A stretch of 64,000 bases of DNA, from contig CABUWV010000007.1 in NCBI GenBank assembly GCA_902495355.1, positions 33,686-97,685 of the forward strand, in the 5' to 3' direction. The DNA is from an uncultured Collinsella sp. GTDB lineage: Bacteria; Actinomycetota; Coriobacteriia; Coriobacteriales; Coriobacteriaceae. Of the stretch, positions 2,908 through 44,776 are shown one piece after another. Position 1 is the first letter of the stretch. Every line of letters starts with the position of its first letter. Under the pieces are notes generated by a model, which was not told where the DNA came from, made no database searches, and saw only the letters and a program-made list of their open reading frames with translations. A program made the translations under genes and the position numbers.

Positions 2908-4425
2908 CTAGTCGGTGCTCATTCGTTTTGCTGCAGACTCGACGTAGCCGGCCATCTCATCGACGTCGCAGACGTCTTCGAAGCGGACGGGTTTGGATTC
3001 GAGTTCGGCGAGCTGGGTCGGGGCGACCGTGTTGGTGGCCTGCTCGAGTACGCGCATAGCCTCAAAATCATCCTCGGGAACGTCGAGGCCCAGGGCGTCG
3101 CAGCAGGCGCGCGGGAACTTGTAGGGGCTGGCGGTCGAAAGCAGCACGCGAGCCTTGGCGCCCTCGGCGGGAGCGACCTTTTCAAAGACGTGATAGCCGC
3201 AAGCGGTGTGCGGGTCGATCACGTAGCCGTTGGCGTCCCAGCAACTCTTGATGGCAGCGCGGACCTCGTCCTCGCTGGCCCAGCCGCAGCCAAAGACGCT
3301 CTGAATCTTGGCCAGCAGCTCGGCGGGTACCTCGTAGCGACCGGTCTGTGCCAACTGCTCCATAAGGCCGGCAACGAGTTCGCAGTCGCCATCGGACAGG
3401 AAGTACAGCATGCGCTCCAGGTTAGAGCTGATGAGGATGTCCATCGACGGCGAGATGGTCGTGAAGAACGGGCGGTTACGGTCGTAGACGCCGGTGGTCA
3501 GGAAGTCGGCAAGCACGTTGTTCTTGTCGCTCGCGACGATGAGCTTGGCGACGGGCAGGCCCATGCGCTTGGCGTAGTAGCCGGCCAAGATATCGCCAAA
3601 GTTGCCGGTGGGCACACAGAACTCTACGGCGTCGCCAGCCTCGATAGCGCCGGCGCGCAGCAGCTGCGCATAGGCGGCAAAGTAGTAGACGACCTGCGGT
3701 ACCAGACGGCCGACATTGATAGAGTTGGCGCTCGAAAGCACCGTGCCGGCGGCTTCCAGGCGCTCGGCAAGCTCCTTATCGGCAAAGATGCGCTTGACGG
3801 CGCTCTGGGCGTCGTCAAAGTTGCCGCGGATGCCGCAGACGGCGACGTTGTCGCCCTCCTGCGTGGACATCTGCAGGTTCTGGACGCGGCTAACCTTGCC
3901 CTCGGGATAAAAGACGGTGATGCCTGTGCCCGGAGCGTCGGCAAAACCGGCGAGTGCGGCCTTGCCGGTGTCGCCCGACGTGGCAGTGACGATCATGATG
4001 CGCTCGGAGCCGCCGTCCTTGGCGGAAGTGCGGGCCATGAGACGGGGAAGCATTTGCAGGGCGACATCCTTAAAGGCGCTCGTGGGGCCGCCAAAGAGCT
4101 CCATCACATAGGTCTGAGGGGCGTCAGCGCCCGGCGCAGCGTCGAGTTTGACGAGCGGCGTAACCTCTTCACTCGCGAACGTGCCGCGGTATGCTTCGTC
4201 GACACACGCCGAAATTTCTTCGGCCGTGTAATCATTCAGTAACATTCCCAACACATCTTGAGCGATTTCAAAGTACGATTTATCTGCAAGCGAGCTGATA
4301 TCGACCTGCTGGGTGCCGAGCTCGTCCGAGACAAACAGACCCCCGTCGGGAGCGATGCCGGTACGGATTGCCACCTTACTTGAGCACGATAAAGTGCGTC
4401 CTCGTGTACTATGATAAGTTCCCAT
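2908..4425 (-). CDS. thrC: threonine synthase (long form)
   Basis: YHSTRG N-terminal motif and the PLP-lysine motif TSAFKD. ATG at 4425 is preceded by GAGGAG. Confidence 0.9.
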   Translation of the reverse strand: MGTYHSTRGRTLSCSSKVAIRTGIAPDGGLFVSDELGTQQVDISSLADKSYFEIAQDVLGMLLNDYTAEEISACVDEAYRGTFASEEVTPLVKLDAAPGADAPQTYVMELFGGPTSAFKDVALQMLPRLMARTSAKDGGSERIMIVTATSGDTGKAALAGFADAPGTGITVFYPEGKVSRVQNLQMSTQEGDNVAVCGIRGNFDDAQSAVKRIFADKELAERLEAAGTVLSSANSINVGRLVPQVVYYFAAYAQLLRAGAIEAGDAVEFCVPTGNFGDILAGYYAKRMGLPVAKLIVASDKNNVLADFLTTGVYDRNRPFFTTISPSMDILISSNLERMLYFLSDGDCELVAGLMEQLAQTGRYEVPAELLAKIQSVFGCGWASEDEVRAAIKSCWDANGYVIDPHTACGYHVFEKVAPAEGAKARVLLSTASPYKFPRACCDALGLDVPEDDFEAMRVLEQATNTVAPTQLAELESKPVRFEDVCDVDEMAGYVESAAKRMSTD

Positions 4426-4529
4426 ATAACACTGCTCCTCGGATGCCTTGGTCCCAATCGGTGAAACCATGGTATCAGAGCGTGCAAAATAGGTTCGCAG
4501 AGGCTTTTTAGAAAGGTAACCTCCAGCCC

Positions 4530-5918
4530 ATGATTAAGATTGCCAAGTTTGGCGGCTCGTCGGTCGCCGACGCCGAACACTTCAAGAAGATCAAGGCCAT
4601 CGTCGATGCCGACCCGGCTCGCCGTTTTGTGGTGGTTTCCGCCTGCGGTCGCCGTTTTAAGGGTGACACCAAGGTGACCGACCTGCTCTATCTGGTCAAT
4701 GCGCACGTTAAGTACCACGTGTCGTGTGAGGAGCTGCTTGAGGACATTGGCCAGCGCTATTTTGATATCGCTGACGAGCTGGAGCTCACCTATCCCATCC
4801 GTGAGGAGTTCGCGGCCTTTGCCGAGCGCGCCCGCTCGGGCGGTTACTCCACCGAGGAGCTCGTGAGCCGCGGTGAGTACTTCACCGCTCGCCTGATGGC
4901 CGAGTACCTGGGCCTGCCGTTCCTGGATGCCGCGACGGTCGTTGCGTTCCATCACGACGGTACGCTCAGCATGAACCGCACCTCCGAGCTGGTGCAGGAG
5001 TACGGTCAGCAGGGCGGCTTTGTTATGCCCGGTTTCTACGGCGCGACGCGTGAGGGCCAGATCAAGCTGCTCGATCGTGGCGGCGGCGATATCTCGGGCT
5101 CGATTTTGGCTAAGTGCCTGGGCGCCGACCTATACGAGAACTGGACCGACGTCTCGGGTTTCTATTCTGCGGATCCGCGTATTGTTCCGGAGGCTCAGCC
5201 CATTGCGCGCGTTACCTACGAGGAGCTGCGCGAGCTTTCGTACATGGGCGCAAGCGTCCTGCACGAGGAAGCCGTGTTTCCCGTGCGCGAGGCAGGCATT
5301 CCGCTGGTCATCAAGAACACCAATGCGCCGCAGGACCCCGGCACCATCATTAGCGAGACGGCTGATGAAGGCGAGGCGGAGCCCATCATTACCGGCGTGA
5401 CCGGCAAGCGCGGTTTTGTCGCCATCAACGTCGCCCGCGACCGCACCAAGCCCCGCGTCGGCTTTATGCGCCGTGCGCTTTCGGTGTTCGAGCGCTATGA
5501 CGTTTCCGTCGAGCACATGCCCACCGGTGTCGACCGCTTTGGCGCCGTGGTGCAGGAGCAGGATGTGCACGATTCACTGTACTCACTCGTGGGCGACATC
5601 CAGCAGGAGGTCGAACCGCTCGAGATCGAGGTTGTCGAGGGCTTGGCGCTCATCGCTACCGTCGGCCGCAACCTGCGCGGTCGTGCAGGTATCTCGGGCC
5701 ATCTGTTTGGCATGCTCGGCCAGGCCGGCGTGAGCGTGCGTATGATTTCGCAGAGCTGTGACGAGATCAACATCATTATCGGTGTCGAGGAGAAGGACTT
5801 CGACCTAGCGATTCGGACCATTTACCGTGCCTTCTCCGATGAGAACGGCATTGTGAAGGTCTCCGACCTGGAGGCTCCCGCGCCGGTCGATCCCGCTCTG
5901 GCCGCGCTCAAAAAGTAG
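4530..5918 (+). CDS. ask: aspartate kinase
   Basis: MIKIAKFGGSSV N-terminus, amino-acid kinase fold, C-terminal ACT-like region (LIATVGRNL...ISQSCDEINI). Confidence 0.9.
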   Translation: MIKIAKFGGSSVADAEHFKKIKAIVDADPARRFVVVSACGRRFKGDTKVTDLLYLVNAHVKYHVSCEELLEDIGQRYFDIADELELTYPIREEFAAFAERARSGGYSTEELVSRGEYFTARLMAEYLGLPFLDAATVVAFHHDGTLSMNRTSELVQEYGQQGGFVMPGFYGATREGQIKLLDRGGGDISGSILAKCLGADLYENWTDVSGFYSADPRIVPEAQPIARVTYEELRELSYMGASVLHEEAVFPVREAGIPLVIKNTNAPQDPGTIISETADEGEAEPIITGVTGKRGFVAINVARDRTKPRVGFMRRALSVFERYDVSVEHMPTGVDRFGAVVQEQDVHDSLYSLVGDIQQEVEPLEIEVVEGLALIATVGRNLRGRAGISGHLFGMLGQAGVSVRMISQSCDEINIIIGVEEKDFDLAIRTIYRAFSDENGIVKVSDLEAPAPVDPALAALKK

Positions 5919-9725: not shown

Positions 9726-10364
9726 CTATTCAGCGCGCTTGATAGGATGACGAACCACGGTCTTTAGTTTCTCCGGTGCACATTTGCGTGGATCGGAGAG
9801 ATAGATTTCGTGATGTAAACGGGTGCCTGAGAAGTCGGGGACATAGCCCTGCTCGGTCGTGTATTCATGCATAGCGTTTACGGTCGCCGGTTCGTCGTCA
9901 TAGGGCCCGGTGTGCATGCATTGAACGCAGAGACCCTCGTCAACTTTAAGCAGCTCGACGGCAGAAAAGTCCAGTTTCTTTTTGGCCGTGGCCTCCGCGA
10001 CTGCCCAGTCAAAATCATCTCGGCTGACGAAATCGGGCAGGCGGATGCACGAGATAAAGTTGAAATCGTCCTTGCGTACATAATCGATGTCGCCGCTCGG
10101 GGAGTCTTGCCACCAGAAACCCTCGAGCGGAGGTACCACAAAGTCGAAATAGCCCTCGATACTCCTTGAGCCTTTCTTCGACATCTTGACGGTATAGGCG
10201 ATGCCGTAAAGCAGCGGCAGGGCGTTTTGATACTCGCCACCTTCAGTATTTGGGTCGCCCTTTCCGCGAACGGCAACGTAGCTCATAGGCGGGACAGTTA
10301 CGATACTCGGCTTGCTCGCAGGTCTGTAGAGCTCCTTGCATTCCTTCTTAAAGTCGAACGCCAT
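9726..10364 (-). CDS. GyrI-like small-molecule-binding domain protein
   Basis: N-terminus FDFKKECKELYRPASKPSIVTVPPMSYVAVRGKGDPN matches the widespread GyrI-like family pattern. No enzymatic motif. Confidence 0.6.
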   Translation of the reverse strand: MAFDFKKECKELYRPASKPSIVTVPPMSYVAVRGKGDPNTEGGEYQNALPLLYGIAYTVKMSKKGSRSIEGYFDFVVPPLEGFWWQDSPSGDIDYVRKDDFNFISCIRLPDFVSRDDFDWAVAEATAKKKLDFSAVELLKVDEGLCVQCMHTGPYDDEPATVNAMHEYTTEQGYVPDFSGTRLHHEIYLSDPRKCAPEKLKTVVRHPIKRAE

Positions 10365-10420: not shown

Positions 10421-10434
10421 CGAACAGCTGTTCG
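10421..10434. promoter_or_regulatory. perfect 14-bp palindrome CGAACAGCTGTTCG upstream of the GyrI-like gene (candidate operator)
   Basis: Read directly. It lies 57 nt upstream of the ATG at 10364 in an AT-richer stretch. Confidence 0.3.
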
Positions 10435-42538: not shown

Positions 42539-42653
42539 GGCGCAGGGACACCGTGGATTTGCGGAAGCATTGTCCCGCCGCGCCGGGACGCCATTGTCTG
42601 GGCATGTCTCTCCTTCGTCTACAATATCGTGCAGACGAAGGAGAGGCATGCCC

Positions 42654-43511
42654 ATGATCAAGATGTTTGCGAGTGACTTAGACGGAACGCTGCTCAACGC
42701 CCTGCACGAGGCAGATGGGACCATCCGCCGTGCCATTCGCGAGCTGACTGAGGCTGGCCTGCATGTGGTTCCCGCGACCGGGCGCTCGACGTTGCCGATC
42801 GGCGAGCATGGCTTTACGGGGCTGGCGCTCGATGCCTGCTGCTCTAACGGCTCCATCGTGCGCGACAGTCATGGCGAGGTGCTCAAAACCTGGACCATCG
42901 ATCCGCAGGTTACCGAGGAGCTGCTCAAGGCATTCCCGGACATTTGCTTTGATTGCTCCACACCCGATGGCATGTTCTCGAGCGGTTCGTTCGAGATGCA
43001 TCAGGCGGGCTTTAAAAAGGACAGCCCCATCAAGCGTATTGTGATGCGCGGCATGCGTGCACGTGGCGGGTATCACGAGGAGCAGTATTTCGACCAGTCG
43101 ATCGGTGACATCCTGCGCCACGATGTGTGCAAGATCAACTGCCGCGTGACCTCGCCCGAGCTGGAGCGCGACCTTAAGGCGTATTTGGCCGAGCGTTCGG
43201 ACCGTGTGGTCAACGCGCCGTTCGATCCGGTGATGTTTGAGATCACGGACGTGGCATGTAACAAGGGCGAGAGTGTGGCTTGGCTGGCGGGCTACTACGG
43301 TATTGCCGAGGATGAGGTTGCGGTTTACGGCGACGGCGGCAACGATATTGCTATGCTCAAGCGTTTCCGCCACAGCTACGCGACCAAAAACGGCAGCGAC
43401 GCGGCCAAGGCCGCCGCGAGCGCGACTATCGGTAGCTGCATGGTCCACGCCGTCCCCAAACATATGTTCGCCACCATGCGCAAGCAAAACTCCCGCACCG
43501 TCATCGAATAA
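42654..43511 (+). CDS. Cof-type HAD-IIB phosphatase
   Basis: FASDLDGTLL (motif I) and YGDGGNDIAML (motif IV). Confidence 0.85.
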   Translation: MIKMFASDLDGTLLNALHEADGTIRRAIRELTEAGLHVVPATGRSTLPIGEHGFTGLALDACCSNGSIVRDSHGEVLKTWTIDPQVTEELLKAFPDICFDCSTPDGMFSSGSFEMHQAGFKKDSPIKRIVMRGMRARGGYHEEQYFDQSIGDILRHDVCKINCRVTSPELERDLKAYLAERSDRVVNAPFDPVMFEITDVACNKGESVAWLAGYYGIAEDEVAVYGDGGNDIAMLKRFRHSYATKNGSDAAKAAASATIGSCMVHAVPKHMFATMRKQNSRTVIE

Positions 43512-43512
43512 T

Positions 43513-43539
43513 GTGACAAAGGGATGGCCCCTTTGTCAC
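43513..43539. repeat. 27-bp palindrome, left copy (GTGACAAAGGG-ATGGC-CCCTTTGTCAC)
   Basis: Perfect 11-bp arms. A related copy lies at 43946-43972. Confidence 0.85.
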
Positions 43540-43570
43540 GGGGCCTGTGTTCTTGGAATACGAACATATA

Positions 43571-43600
43571 TTCGTATATATAACTAGGCTCTGGTAGAAT
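43571..43600 (+). promoter_or_regulatory. candidate promoter for the small hydrophobic ORF
   Basis: TTCGTA (43571-43576), 18-nt spacer, TAGAAT (43595-43600) with TGG just upstream. AT-rich context. Confidence 0.45.
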
Positions 43601-43664
43601 CGGCATTGTTGACGGCAGTTCCATGTGCCGGGCAACGCCCTCCATCTGATGGGAGGTGATGCCC

Positions 43665-43790
43665 ATGACCGATCTGATTGATTTCGTGAGACTTCTGACC
43701 GCTTTGGTCTCGTTCTTCACGGCGCTCGTCGGGCTTTCCGAGGCACTCAAGCAACGTTCGAAGCAACGTAAAAGGGGTCGCCGCCGCTAA
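43665..43790 (+). CDS. 41-aa hydrophobic peptide with a poly-Arg/Lys tail (candidate type I toxin / holin-like toxin)
   Basis: MTDLIDFVRLLTALVSFFTALVGLSEALKQRSKQRKRGRRR. GGGAGG at 43651-43656 lies 8 nt upstream. Below the ORF-track size cutoff. An in-frame ATG also occurs at 43659. Confidence 0.55.
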   Translation: MTDLIDFVRLLTALVSFFTALVGLSEALKQRSKQRKRGRRR

Positions 43791-43852
43791 GGCGTTGACC
43801 CCTTAATCCAAGCAACGGCGCTGCCCAGCTTTCCAGAACTTGGGCTGCCGTC
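43767..43852 (-). ncRNA. predicted cis-antisense small RNA overlapping the 3' end of the small ORF (candidate antitoxin RNA)
   Basis: Bounded by a minus-strand promoter (TTGTCC-17-TAGAAT) and the hairpin at 43772-43804, which on the minus strand is followed by UUUU. The ends are estimates. Confidence 0.3.
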
Positions 43853-43858
43853 GACACT

Positions 43859-43887
43859 ATTCTACCCACGAATGACATTTTGGACAA
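43859..43887 (-). promoter_or_regulatory. candidate convergent promoter (minus strand)
   Basis: On the minus strand: TTGTCC (43887-43882), 17-nt spacer, TAGAAT (43864-43859), preceded by TGGG. Confidence 0.5.
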
Positions 43888-43945
43888 TCGGTAATGCCGC
43901 CCTAAAAACCTGGCACAACCTGCACAACCTAGGCGGTCGCTGGAT

Positions 43946-43972
43946 GTGACAAAGAGGCTGCCCCTTCGTCAC
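43946..43972. repeat. 27-bp palindrome, right copy (GTGACAAAGAGG-CTG-CCCCTTCGTCAC)
   Basis: Related to 43513-43539, including the shared ATGTGACAAAG lead-in. Confidence 0.75.
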
Positions 43973-44065
43973 AACCCAAATATTGCCTTTACGTGTTGAT
44001 GCACACGGTGTGCAATAATACTCGCACTGTGCAATAGCGCACAGGCTGAGTAACAAGGAGGACGC

Positions 44066-44776
44066 TTGTCCCAGCTCGAGAAATGCGATCGCCGGTCTCT
44101 TCGCTCGCAGCGTGCCCTTCGCCAGGCACTTGCCAGCGAGCTTGCCGAAAGCGGCGACCTTTCGCGCATTAACGTCGCGTCGCTCACCGAGCGTGCCGGC
44201 CTTACGCGCCGCACGTTCTATTCGCACTACCGCGATATCCCCGACTTTATCAGCCAGATCGAGGACGGCCTGCTTGCCGAGATTCGTGAGCGGGTGGAGC
44301 TTATCACCGCAGCTCAATTACCCGATCTTTACCGCAACATCGACGAGCTCGAGCCGGCACCCGGTTCGGTTGAGCTGCTTCGCTATCTTGCGGCTAATCG
44401 CGACCTTATCGGGGCCCTGCTGGGCCCGGGCGGCGACCCTGCCTTTATTAAAAAGATTATCGACACCGCGCGTGAGGCTGTGGTGCCGCGTGCACAGACG
44501 GGCATTTTGGGCTTGGCGCTGGGCACCTTCTTTGACTACTACGTCACCTATGTCGTGAGTGCCGAGGTCGGCATGATCCAACGTTGGTTTGAGCGTGACC
44601 TTTCTGAATCGCCCGAGACCATGGCGCGCATTATGACGGTCATCGCCTTTGTGCGCCCCGGCGACCTGTATGGCCAACCCATCGATATCAACGTGCCGGA
44701 ATACGGCATGAAGCTATTGAATCTGCAGCTCGAGGACGCGGTCGACACCACCGCAACCGTCGAGTCCAACAACTAA
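44066..44776 (+). CDS. TetR-family transcriptional regulator
   Basis: HTH INVASLTERAGLTRRTFYSHYRDIPDF. TTG start. The stop lies 11 nt before the giant downstream gene. Confidence 0.75.
   Translation: MSQLEKCDRRSLRSQRALRQALASELAESGDLSRINVASLTERAGLTRRTFYSHYRDIPDFISQIEDGLLAEIRERVELITAAQLPDLYRNIDELEPAPGSVELLRYLAANRDLIGALLGPGGDPAFIKKIIDTAREAVVPRAQTGILGLALGTFFDYYVTYVVSAEVGMIQRWFERDLSESPETMARIMTVIAFVRPGDLYGQPIDINVPEYGMKLLNLQLEDAVDTTATVESNN

Follow-up and report, generated by a model that had tools for sequence, protein, structure and literature searches.

Toxin-antitoxin (TA) systems of type I have, to our knowledge, been characterized almost only in Firmicutes and Proteobacteria, and a literature search returned no description of one in Actinobacteria or Coriobacteriia, nor of the peptide or RNA considered here. 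Among the actinobacteria that live in the human gut, Collinsella is one of the most prevalent genera. Here, we analyze a cassette of ~340 base pairs (bp) in a 64,000-nucleotide (nt) stretch of contig CABUWV010000007.1 from an uncultured Collinsella sp., referred to as the window, which encodes a 41-residue hydrophobic peptide on the plus strand and a predicted small antisense RNA convergent with it on the minus strand. The core of this cassette is probably a type I TA-like module of a previously undescribed family.

Type I families of Gram-positive bacteria have their antisense RNA at the 3' side, in partial overlap with the mRNA and its open reading frame (ORF) (PMC8594479). The Collinsella locus resembles TxpA/RatA, BsrG/SR4, BsrE/SR5, and YonT/SR6 of Bacillus subtilis in combining a single-helix membrane peptide with a convergent 3' antisense RNA that overlaps the ORF end and the 3' untranslated region. 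Its peptide, however, has no sequence similarity to those of the Bacillus systems and comes from another phylum (Actinomycetota, class Coriobacteriia), its chromosomal copies carry a LexA-type operator, and its mRNA leader and antisense gene form an inverted repeat. Moreover, the Bacillus loci lie mostly in prophage remnants, whereas the Collinsella loci are found in core chromosome, plasmid, and conjugative contexts. The cassette core and its ORF are as follows (positions are those of the window).

~43555 to 43890, ~340 bp: core of the type I TA-like cassette, from the sense promoter to the -35 element of the convergent minus-strand promoter
43665 to 43790, plus strand: 41-codon ORF, with a hydrophobic helix at residues 4 to 22 bearing a narrow polar stripe, followed by a basic tail

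The ORF product, MTDLIDFVRLLTALVSFFTALVGLSEALKQRSKQRKRGRRR, has a helix with a Kyte-Doolittle mean of 1.99 across residues 4 to 22 and a C-terminal tail with a net charge of +8, and the polar stripe can be read from the sequence as D3, D6, R9, T12, S16, T19, G23, and E26. The same design recurs throughout the family: an acidic N terminus, a hydrophobic helix of ~20 residues with a polar residue at each third or fourth position, and a K/R-rich tail. It is thus the kind of small (less than ~60 amino acids [aa]), hydrophobic, membrane-directed protein by which type I TA systems are recognized. Relatives are numerous. A collection of 5.8 billion proteins contains 359 of them, nearly all 41 aa long, from Collinsella, and labelled "hypothetical protein" (413 in another search), and at least 571 Collinsella loci were confirmed by tblastn in a scan of one genome per GTDB species; 80 loci were kept from the tblastn scan, nearly all titled Collinsella and two titled just "uncultured bacterium." A profile search of 1.84 billion cluster representatives yielded 72 clusters (50% identity), including members that are only 43 to 60% identical, such as MVDLIIELARLLASLAALATALVDMSKARRRNPRRKKRGRRR. 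Across eight lineages, the start, the stop, and the length (38 to 42 aa) are preserved at identities down to 43%, and the pairwise ratio of nonsynonymous to synonymous divergence (dN/dS) ranges from 0.14 to 0.66, with dS often above 1. By this comparative evidence, the ORF is a real gene under purifying selection, and the small, hydrophobic, basic-tailed peptide proposed by the initial annotation is borne out by that selection and by the number of confirmed loci.

The initial annotation also described the locus as unannotated. This is correct for the ORF track from which it worked but not for RefSeq, where the orthologous 41-aa ORF is called a "hypothetical protein" (WP_022094649.1, WP_256637919.1, and WP_255413117.1) and annotation of an RNA gene is absent; an ORF call made on the window in this analysis gives a GTG-extended 44-aa form. 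Apart from this, the ORF, its Shine-Dalgarno (SD) sequence, both promoters, the hairpin at 43772 to 43804, and the two palindromes that it listed were each found where it had placed them.

Searches for known families returned little. Ten diverse members gave only single chance-level matches in Pfam and NCBIfam at E ≤ 10 (best E = 0.068), PADLOC has no family for the window peptide or for these ten, and the Pfam and NCBIfam profiles of known toxins (Fst, Hok/Gef, Ldr, TisB, Ibs, ShoB, and holin-like) produced no significant match to the peptide. A single transmembrane helix with a charged C terminus would also suit a holin-like or bacteriocin-like peptide of a lysis or competition system, and one member matched a phage holin family at chance level (E = 0.15). 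Yet the contexts seen contain no linked endolysin, immunity, transporter, or phage genes, the peptides have no leader or double-glycine motif, and neither a scan of viral contigs nor a BLAST search of phage genomes found a relative of the cassette. We consider this the most improbable of the explanations weighed here.

The second component of the proposed module is encoded on the opposite strand by three adjoining elements.

43859 to 43887, minus strand: antisense promoter, with a -35 element TTGTCC (43887 to 43882), a 17-nt spacer, and a -10 element TAGAAT (43864 to 43859)
43762 to 43852, minus strand: predicted antisense small RNA of ~90 nt, consisting of a 5' hairpin (43814 to 43852), a linker, and a terminator
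43762 to 43804, minus strand: intrinsic terminator, with a hairpin at 43772 to 43804 and a U-tail provided by Lys/Arg codons (43762 to 43771), overlapping the last 8 to 9 codons of the ORF

The TTGTCC-17-TAGAAT promoter is the sole match of a consensus promoter scan between 43300 and 44200 (1 found, 0.4 expected) and is nearly invariant across 70 sequences of the window's chromosomal site, locus A. Its -10 element (TAGAAT, TAAAAT, TAGGAT, or TATACT) is at the same place in 7 of the 8 lineages, and in most of them a -35 element, either of the TTG type or TCGACA, lies 17 to 18 nt away. An RNAalifold consensus of 11 sequences contains two minus-strand hairpins with 21 pairs, 8 of them compensatory, and the fold of the single antisense RNA has a z-score of -2.6. 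The structure is clearly strand specific: read as minus-strand RNA, the helices contain 28 G·U pairs and only 3 A·C cells, which on the plus strand would be G·U (15 and 0, respectively, for the terminator alone), and the 10 nt that follow the terminator hairpin hold 6 to 7 U on the minus strand compared to 1 to 4 on the plus strand in all 11 sequences. A simple terminator scan missed this hairpin, probably because its stem has an internal loop. Within the overlap, arginine is encoded by AGA or AGG in the A-run and by CGN in the terminator stem, and such dual coding at the ORF end fits selection on the terminator. Hence, the convergent layout with a 3' overlap that the initial annotation described is upheld by a conserved minus-strand promoter and a terminator that works on the minus strand only.

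By position, the antisense RNA has perfect complementarity to the mRNA over the final ~26 nt of the ORF and the ~60 nt beyond it; an antisense RNA gene with the potential to pair with the toxin mRNA, the other hallmark of type I TA systems, is thus present computationally. The existence of a small-RNA gene is well supported by these alignments, with ends that are predicted. A search of 43000 to 44500 against Rfam 15 at E ≤ 10 gave just a chance HgcE match (14 bits compared to a gathering score of 50), located outside the cassette.

Could the RNA, rather than the peptide, be what the cassette is for? The functional product might be the minus-strand small RNA acting in trans, or a structured plus-strand RNA, with the ORF secondary or part of a dual-function RNA. 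The noncoding 3' part of the cassette (43791 to 43890) is indeed conserved as much as the ORF or more, and the strand specificity of the small-RNA structure points the same way. However, the frame, length, start, and stop of the ORF have been kept despite saturated synonymous divergence, with dN/dS well below 1, the SD sequence and the hairpin that sequesters it are conserved, and within the window the small RNA was found to have extended complementarity only to its own cassette. An RNA-centered function is therefore improbable in our judgment.

The upstream half of the cassette contains the sense promoter, the mRNA leader, and one side of an internal inverted repeat of at least 25 bp.

43571 to 43600, plus strand: sense promoter, with a -35 element TTCGTA, an 18-nt spacer, TG at 43592 to 43593 (extended -10), and a -10 element TAGAAT (43595 to 43600)
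43607 to 43664, plus strand: predicted mRNA leader (predicted transcription start site), with an SD-sequestering hairpin at 43630 to 43664 and the SD sequence GGGAGG at 43651 to 43656
43607 to 43621 and 43630 to 43639, plus strand: left arms of the inverted repeat, in the leader, pairing with 43842 to 43856 and 43817 to 43826, respectively
43817 to 43856, plus strand: right arms of the inverted repeat; this DNA, read on the minus strand, also specifies the antisense RNA's 5' hairpin

The sense promoter was not called by the consensus scan because its -35 element is weak, and since the scans called neither this promoter nor the terminator hairpin, both were judged by comparison with relatives. 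A -10 element (TAGAAT, TAGACT, CATAAT, TATAAT, or TATATT), mostly TGn extended, precedes the leader in every lineage that keeps a leader. The initial annotation had proposed a stem sequestering the ribosome-binding site, in which CCTCC at 43639 to 43643 stands opposite GGAGG at 43652 to 43656, and the minimum free energy (MFE) structure from ViennaRNA agrees with it: a three-part hairpin of 14 bp at 43630 to 43664 pairs the whole SD sequence and extends to the AUG. Over 10 sequences from 7 lineages, 90.6% of this hairpin is paired, differences between copies sit in the loop, and each of 10 modelled transcripts pairs between 3 and 5 of its 5 SD bases.

The arms of the inverted repeat covary to an extent that is hard to obtain by chance. 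In ten sequences, 89% of the cells are paired and 10 pairs have changed on both sides, a result reached by 0 of 500 shuffles and compared to 1 to 5 in slid controls; in the plasmid subtype, for instance, GGGCAGCGCC/GGCGCTGCCC becomes GGGCAGAGCC/GGCTCTGCCC. Counted on the plus strand, the outer helix of the repeat has 27 G·U pairs and 7 A·C cells, and most polymorphisms within populations preserve plus-strand pairing. When full-length transcripts were modelled with the predicted start as their 5' end and a 3' end immediately ahead of the minus-strand -10 element, a helix closing the mRNA between its 5' and 3' regions appeared in the MFE structure of 10 of 10. As a consequence of the inverted orientation, the antisense RNA nearly repeats the mRNA leader in its 5' half and does not complement it. 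Pairing of the antisense RNA in trans with the leader or the SD sequence was considered and is rejected, since the DNA repeats are inverted and the 5' regions of the two RNAs are alike.

In the mRNAs of hok and aapA1, long-distance pairing of the 5' and 3' ends locks the full-length molecule in an inactive state. With Hok/Sok of plasmid R1 and AapA1/IsoA1 of Helicobacter pylori, the Collinsella cassette shares the occurrence of both plasmid and chromosomal copies, a sequestered SD sequence, and, as predicted from the models, 5'-3' pairing of the mRNA. In Hok and AapA1, however, it is the 5' part of the mRNA that the antisense RNA binds, and 3' trimming is needed for activation, whereas in Collinsella the predicted antisense RNA spans the 3' strand of the putative closing helix; the peptide has no homology to Hok, and the cassette has no mok-like reading frame. 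Fst/RNA II of the par locus of pAD1 (Enterococcus) resembles the cassette in being a plasmid-borne small toxin with convergent RNAs over a shared hairpin terminator and with an intramolecular 5' stem-loop that limits translation. The direct repeats of par give the two RNAs complementary, interacting 5' regions, whereas the inverted repeats of Collinsella make these regions alike. Unlike in par, the overlap in Collinsella includes coding sequence, and the U-tail of the terminator is confined to one strand in most lineages.

The cassette is single copy within the window but recurs elsewhere in Collinsella genomes, and these copies define its extent. The window's subtype lies at locus A, the interval between a Cof-type HAD hydrolase gene (42570 to 43511) and a gene for a TetR-family regulator (44066 to 44776), in ~80 Collinsella genomes; within this locus, 43560 to 43945 is almost invariant in nucleotides, and neither the flanking palindromes nor the HAD gene at its 3' end is as well conserved. 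A second subtype (…FVKLLT…LLTALIGL…) occupies a different chromosomal site, locus B, where it is divergent from an RNase_T/DnaQ-type exonuclease gene. In the alignment of the two loci, homology starts just left of the CGAACATATATTCG box (~43555) and stops at the minus-strand -35 element (~43890). A third subtype (MTDFTE[FL]VKLL…KKKGHRR) is found on Collinsella aerofaciens plasmids, and the 23-kilobase (kb) putative_pCaero1 of the type strain carries the cassette together with ParA, CopG, a recombinase, and a RelB antitoxin; C. aerofaciens ATCC 25986 has both the pCaero1 copy and a chromosomal copy at locus A. A distant member, MTELTEYVRLLTALVGLLAALAKATSEAPKQKASRKRKGHRH (lineage L093, 2184 to 2312), is located ~600 bp downstream of an ArdC-N/MPTase-PolyVal anti-restriction-type gene (505 to 1578). 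Genes of this type are typical of conjugative elements, and their neighborhood indicates that this copy is carried on one. The remaining lineages occupy further genomic contexts. Because the homology between loci A and B is confined between the two promoters, the unit appears to be bounded by them: judged from the aligned copies, the repeated unit is the two convergent promoters plus the intervening DNA, multicopy and partly on mobile replicons. In metagenome contigs, two patterns derived from the conserved leader gave 0 matches and then 12 unrelated matches from high-GC soil sequences, with no family member among them.

This boundary disagrees with the one suggested by two palindromes that flank the cassette in the window.

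43511 to 43539: upstream 29-nt palindrome, directly after the stop codon of the HAD hydrolase gene, flanking and outside the cassette
43944 to 43972: downstream 29-nt palindrome, flanking, ~55 bp past the end of the cassette and ~95 bp upstream of the TetR gene

The initial annotation took the interval between them as a unit that inserted or duplicated. Its observation that this interval is richer in AT stands (54% G+C, compared to 60% for the whole window), and the palindromes are 83% identical to each other and are each other's sole matches in the 64 kb at ≤3 mismatches (shuffles expect 0.00). They are at fixed positions in most locus A genomes (the upstream copy in ~80 Collinsella genomes), and they vary by compensatory changes that keep the hairpin (GTGACAAAGGG…CCCTTTGTCAC and ATGGCAAAGGAAC…GTTCCTTCGCCAT), with the arms of the downstream palindrome reaching 15 nt in many strains. 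However, they were not found at locus B, in the plasmid copies, or in lineages D to H, and the nucleotide homology of paralogues ends 15 to 55 bp inside them, at both promoters. A plus-strand terminator-like alternative stem followed by T-rich sequence was called at the upstream palindrome; since this palindrome follows the HAD stop codon and overlaps the terminator-like site, it is plausibly the terminator of the HAD gene. The palindromes are, on this comparison, local hairpins of locus A and not parts of the cassette, so that the proposed marking of an inserted or duplicated unit is not supported, and the cassette could conceivably have inserted into a preexisting hairpin at this one locus.

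The same data bear on a further explanation, namely, that the cassette is a mobile or recombination-prone element resembling a miniature inverted-repeat transposable element, set by the 29-nt palindromes or by the internal inverted repeat, with the ORF and promoters as passengers. Similar palindromes that bracket the cassette and occur nowhere else in the 64 kb would suit such an element, as would the internal repeat of at least 25 bp, the presence at several genomic sites, and the targeting of the cassette by an IS110-family element. Nevertheless, no other cassette locus has the palindromes, and homology stops short of them. Nor is the internal repeat at the termini, since the promoters and operator lie outside the repeat yet within the conserved unit. 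Neither target-site duplications nor a transposase association was seen, except for the insertion sequence (IS) that interrupts the ORF, and the phage and viral collections mentioned above hold no copies. We regard this explanation as highly improbable.

The interrupting element leaves a recognizable trace in the family. Many variants end in "...K(K)TI*" in place of the basic tail (P0068, P0074, P0128, P0130, P0147, P0158, P0236, and others), and they are found in subtypes A, B, and C. In the loci examined (L109 to L111, ~3100 to 4690), this ending is caused by an IS110-family element (DEDD_Tnp_IS110 plus Transposase_20, with terminal repeats ATATGAGAAAGCCATT/AATGGCTTTCTCATAT) inserted in the A-run that adjoins the terminator hairpin on its 5' side; beyond the IS, these loci did not show the remaining 3' portion of the cassette. 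The recurrence at one point suggests that the cassette contains a sequence-specific IS110 insertion hot spot.

A further feature of the chromosomal copies may link the cassette to the SOS response.

43561 to 43574: LexA (SOS) box-like operator CGAAC-ATAT-ATTCG (CGAACATATATTCG), overlapping the -35 element of the sense promoter

LexA sites of Firmicutes and Actinobacteria have the form GAAC-N4-GTTC. In all 89 locus A and B copies fetched, the two half-sites (CGAAC and ATTCG) are constant, with a 4-nt spacer of ATAT, AAAC, or ACAT; because the half-sites are fixed and the spacer varies, the candidate box has the signature of a dimer-binding site. An identical box precedes a distant member of lower GC content (L095). 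The lexA gene of C. aerofaciens, located in NZ_OY725717.1 by tblastn with B. subtilis LexA (52% identity), has three GAAC-N4-GTTC-type boxes 37 to 93 bp upstream of its start (AGAACGAATGTTCG, CGAACAGTTGTTCC, and CGAACATTTGTTTG). There (L119; 3379 to 3831 and 3992 to 4636), a LysM-domain gene is transcribed away from lexA, with nrdR and dut next in line, and the boxes are in the shared intergenic region, an arrangement that YneA/ChiZ-type SOS cell division inhibitors have in other Gram-positive bacteria. From these sites, we infer that LexA represses the chromosomal copies. Neither this operator nor the inverted repeat between the leader and the antisense gene was part of the initial annotation. 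A near-match at the 3' end of the HAD gene (CAAACATATGTTCG, 43457 to 43470, 104 bp upstream of the cassette box) was considered as a second operator and rejected, as it is unconserved (CAAACACATGCTCG in the type strain) and probably due to chance. A literature search found nothing specific on LexA/SOS boxes in Coriobacteriia, a tblastn search of PLSDB with E. coli RecA had no Collinsella among the matches listed, and no ruvCAB lies downstream of yebC in a C. aerofaciens record.

With TisB/IstR-1 and DinQ/AgrB of E. coli, the Collinsella cassette would share a LexA-controlled toxin promoter, as predicted here, and an RNA antagonist expected to be constitutive. Also alike are the short amphipathic transmembrane helix with a polar stripe and an mRNA that is translationally inert as made, or in Collinsella is predicted to be. 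On the other hand, the antisense genes of TisB and DinQ are 5' of the toxin gene, divergent and nonoverlapping, and act at a standby or 5' site, whereas the Collinsella antisense RNA overlaps the 3' end, and there is no homology to either peptide.

SOS control also opens the way to a different function. SidA of Caulobacter is a 29-aa SOS-induced protein, and the Collinsella peptide could likewise be a nontoxic, DNA damage-induced small membrane protein that modulates division or transport and is tuned by a cis-antisense RNA without addiction logic. The LexA-type box on chromosomal copies, the lack of homology to known toxins, and the many natural alleles disrupted by an IS with no obvious consequence would all suit such a protein. 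But the copies linked to plasmids and conjugation lack the box and have nonetheless retained the antisense gene and the SD trap along with the peptide, a pattern typical of addiction modules and not of a host SOS effector, and this weakens the case for a purely SOS-related role. Furthermore, Collinsella already has a LysM protein, encoded divergently from lexA, in the position of a YneA/ChiZ-type division inhibitor, and layered repression by operator, SD trap, and antisense RNA is what would be expected for a harmful product. A nontoxic SOS protein is thus unlikely, and a type I TA-like module remains the reading that we favor, because purifying selection on the peptide, carriage in multiple copies and on plasmids, and a conserved antisense promoter with a minus-strand-only terminator are found together.

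How would such a module work? In chromosomal copies, LexA bound to CGAAC-N4-ATTCG over the -35 element would silence the peptide promoter until DNA damage occurs. Once made, the mRNA would hide its SD sequence in a leader fold reaching up to the AUG, and its 5' end would pair with the 3' region, keeping the molecule compact and poorly translated. In txpA/RatA and bsrG/SR4, formation of the RNA duplex triggers mRNA decay. In Collinsella, a duplex between the antisense RNA and the 3' end of the mRNA would similarly be expected to invite double-strand-specific cleavage and decay, and it would also free the leader from its 3' partner. Peptide produced in excess of the antisense RNA, with its single helix and basic cytoplasmic tail, would insert into the membrane and cause depolarization or damage.

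Several observations weigh against this reading. The window peptide matches no Pfam family at E ≤ 1 and no NCBIfam family at E ≤ 10, and because no known toxin family was matched, it is called a toxin only by its design and context. The antisense promoter is poor or missing in two lineages, L095 and L093, the latter with a 20-nt spacer. The conserved core contains no canonical plus-strand terminator, and the hairpin at the stop codon has no plus-strand U-tail, so that the closing helix presupposes transcriptional read-through, to at least 43856. The strand bias of the repeat is moderate, and the type strain (L019) suits the minus strand better. Since the DNA of the right arm also encodes the 5' hairpin of the small RNA, the arms may stay alike through gene conversion, and the covariation between the leader and the 3' region could reflect conversion of one arm of an inverted duplication by the other instead of selection for RNA pairing. 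As for the operator, the cassette box is one mismatch away from GAAC-N4-GTTC, as is the third lexA box, and it is absent from the plasmid copies and several lineages, which have an ordinary -35 element. Finally, frequent interruption by IS110 fits either counterselection of a toxin or plain dispensability.

A more detailed model can be drawn from the same features: the cassette would be the first type I TA family of Actinomycetota, with SOS-controlled chromosomal copies and unregulated plasmid or conjugative copies, and its antitoxin RNA, besides setting off decay of the duplex, would be a leader mimic that outcompetes the leader for the 3' closing element and so switches the fold of the mRNA. 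Taken as a whole, this model is rather doubtful, and we offer it tentatively.

If the type I reading is true, the phylogenetic range of this class of TA systems is extended, and two new families, one of toxin sequences and one of small RNAs, missing from Pfam and Rfam, are added. It would also connect a membrane-active peptide with the SOS response in a commensal of the gut, with a bearing on dormancy induced by antibiotics or DNA damage and on plasmid maintenance. Hundreds of alleles, eight lineages, and natural IS knockouts make the family a natural system for the coevolution of antisense control, SD trapping, and mRNA closure. Should the peptide be nontoxic, the locus would still be a clean case of a small membrane protein controlled by an SOS box and provided with a dedicated antisense RNA.

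Two records add to the picture of the copies. In L108 (2950 to 3052), a plasmid-type copy has no promoter, leader, or SD sequence; the sequence upstream of its ATG has been replaced, and the 3' antisense region is retained. It adjoins metallophosphoesterase and DUF5067 genes, as on pCaero1, and may be either a rearranged allele or a remnant of natural origin that is "antitoxin-only." The PLSDB record NZ_OY725717.1 (899,693 bp, "plasmid 6") holds the core chromosomal genes lexA, groEL, lysS, and murI and the arg operon in addition to the orthologue of the window locus. Its plasmid label is apparently wrong and the record a piece of chromosome, the true plasmid copies being on small plasmids of 23 to 30 kb.

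Elsewhere in the window, a perfect LexA-type box, CGAACAGCTGTTCG (context AACGAACAGCTGTTCGAAT), lies in intergenic DNA at 10421 to 10434, ~57 bp upstream of a gene with a GyrI-like domain (9726 to 10364, minus strand). The E. coli gene sbmC/gyrI is an SOS gene, and by its box the GyrI-like gene may be a second LexA regulon member of the window. The 212-aa ORF beside this box was considered as LexA itself and rejected, since it is a GyrI-like protein.

Downstream of the cassette, a perfect 7-1-7 palindrome, TGCACAC-G-GTGTGCA (44000 to 44014), overlaps the likely promoter of the TetR-family gene, and TGTGCAATA repeats are located at ~44009 to 44033. The 29-nt palindromes were also considered as the TetR operator, which is unlikely given the 7-1-7 palindrome over the TetR promoter region; the latter, distinct from them, is plausibly an autoregulatory operator of TetR, judging from its symmetry and position.

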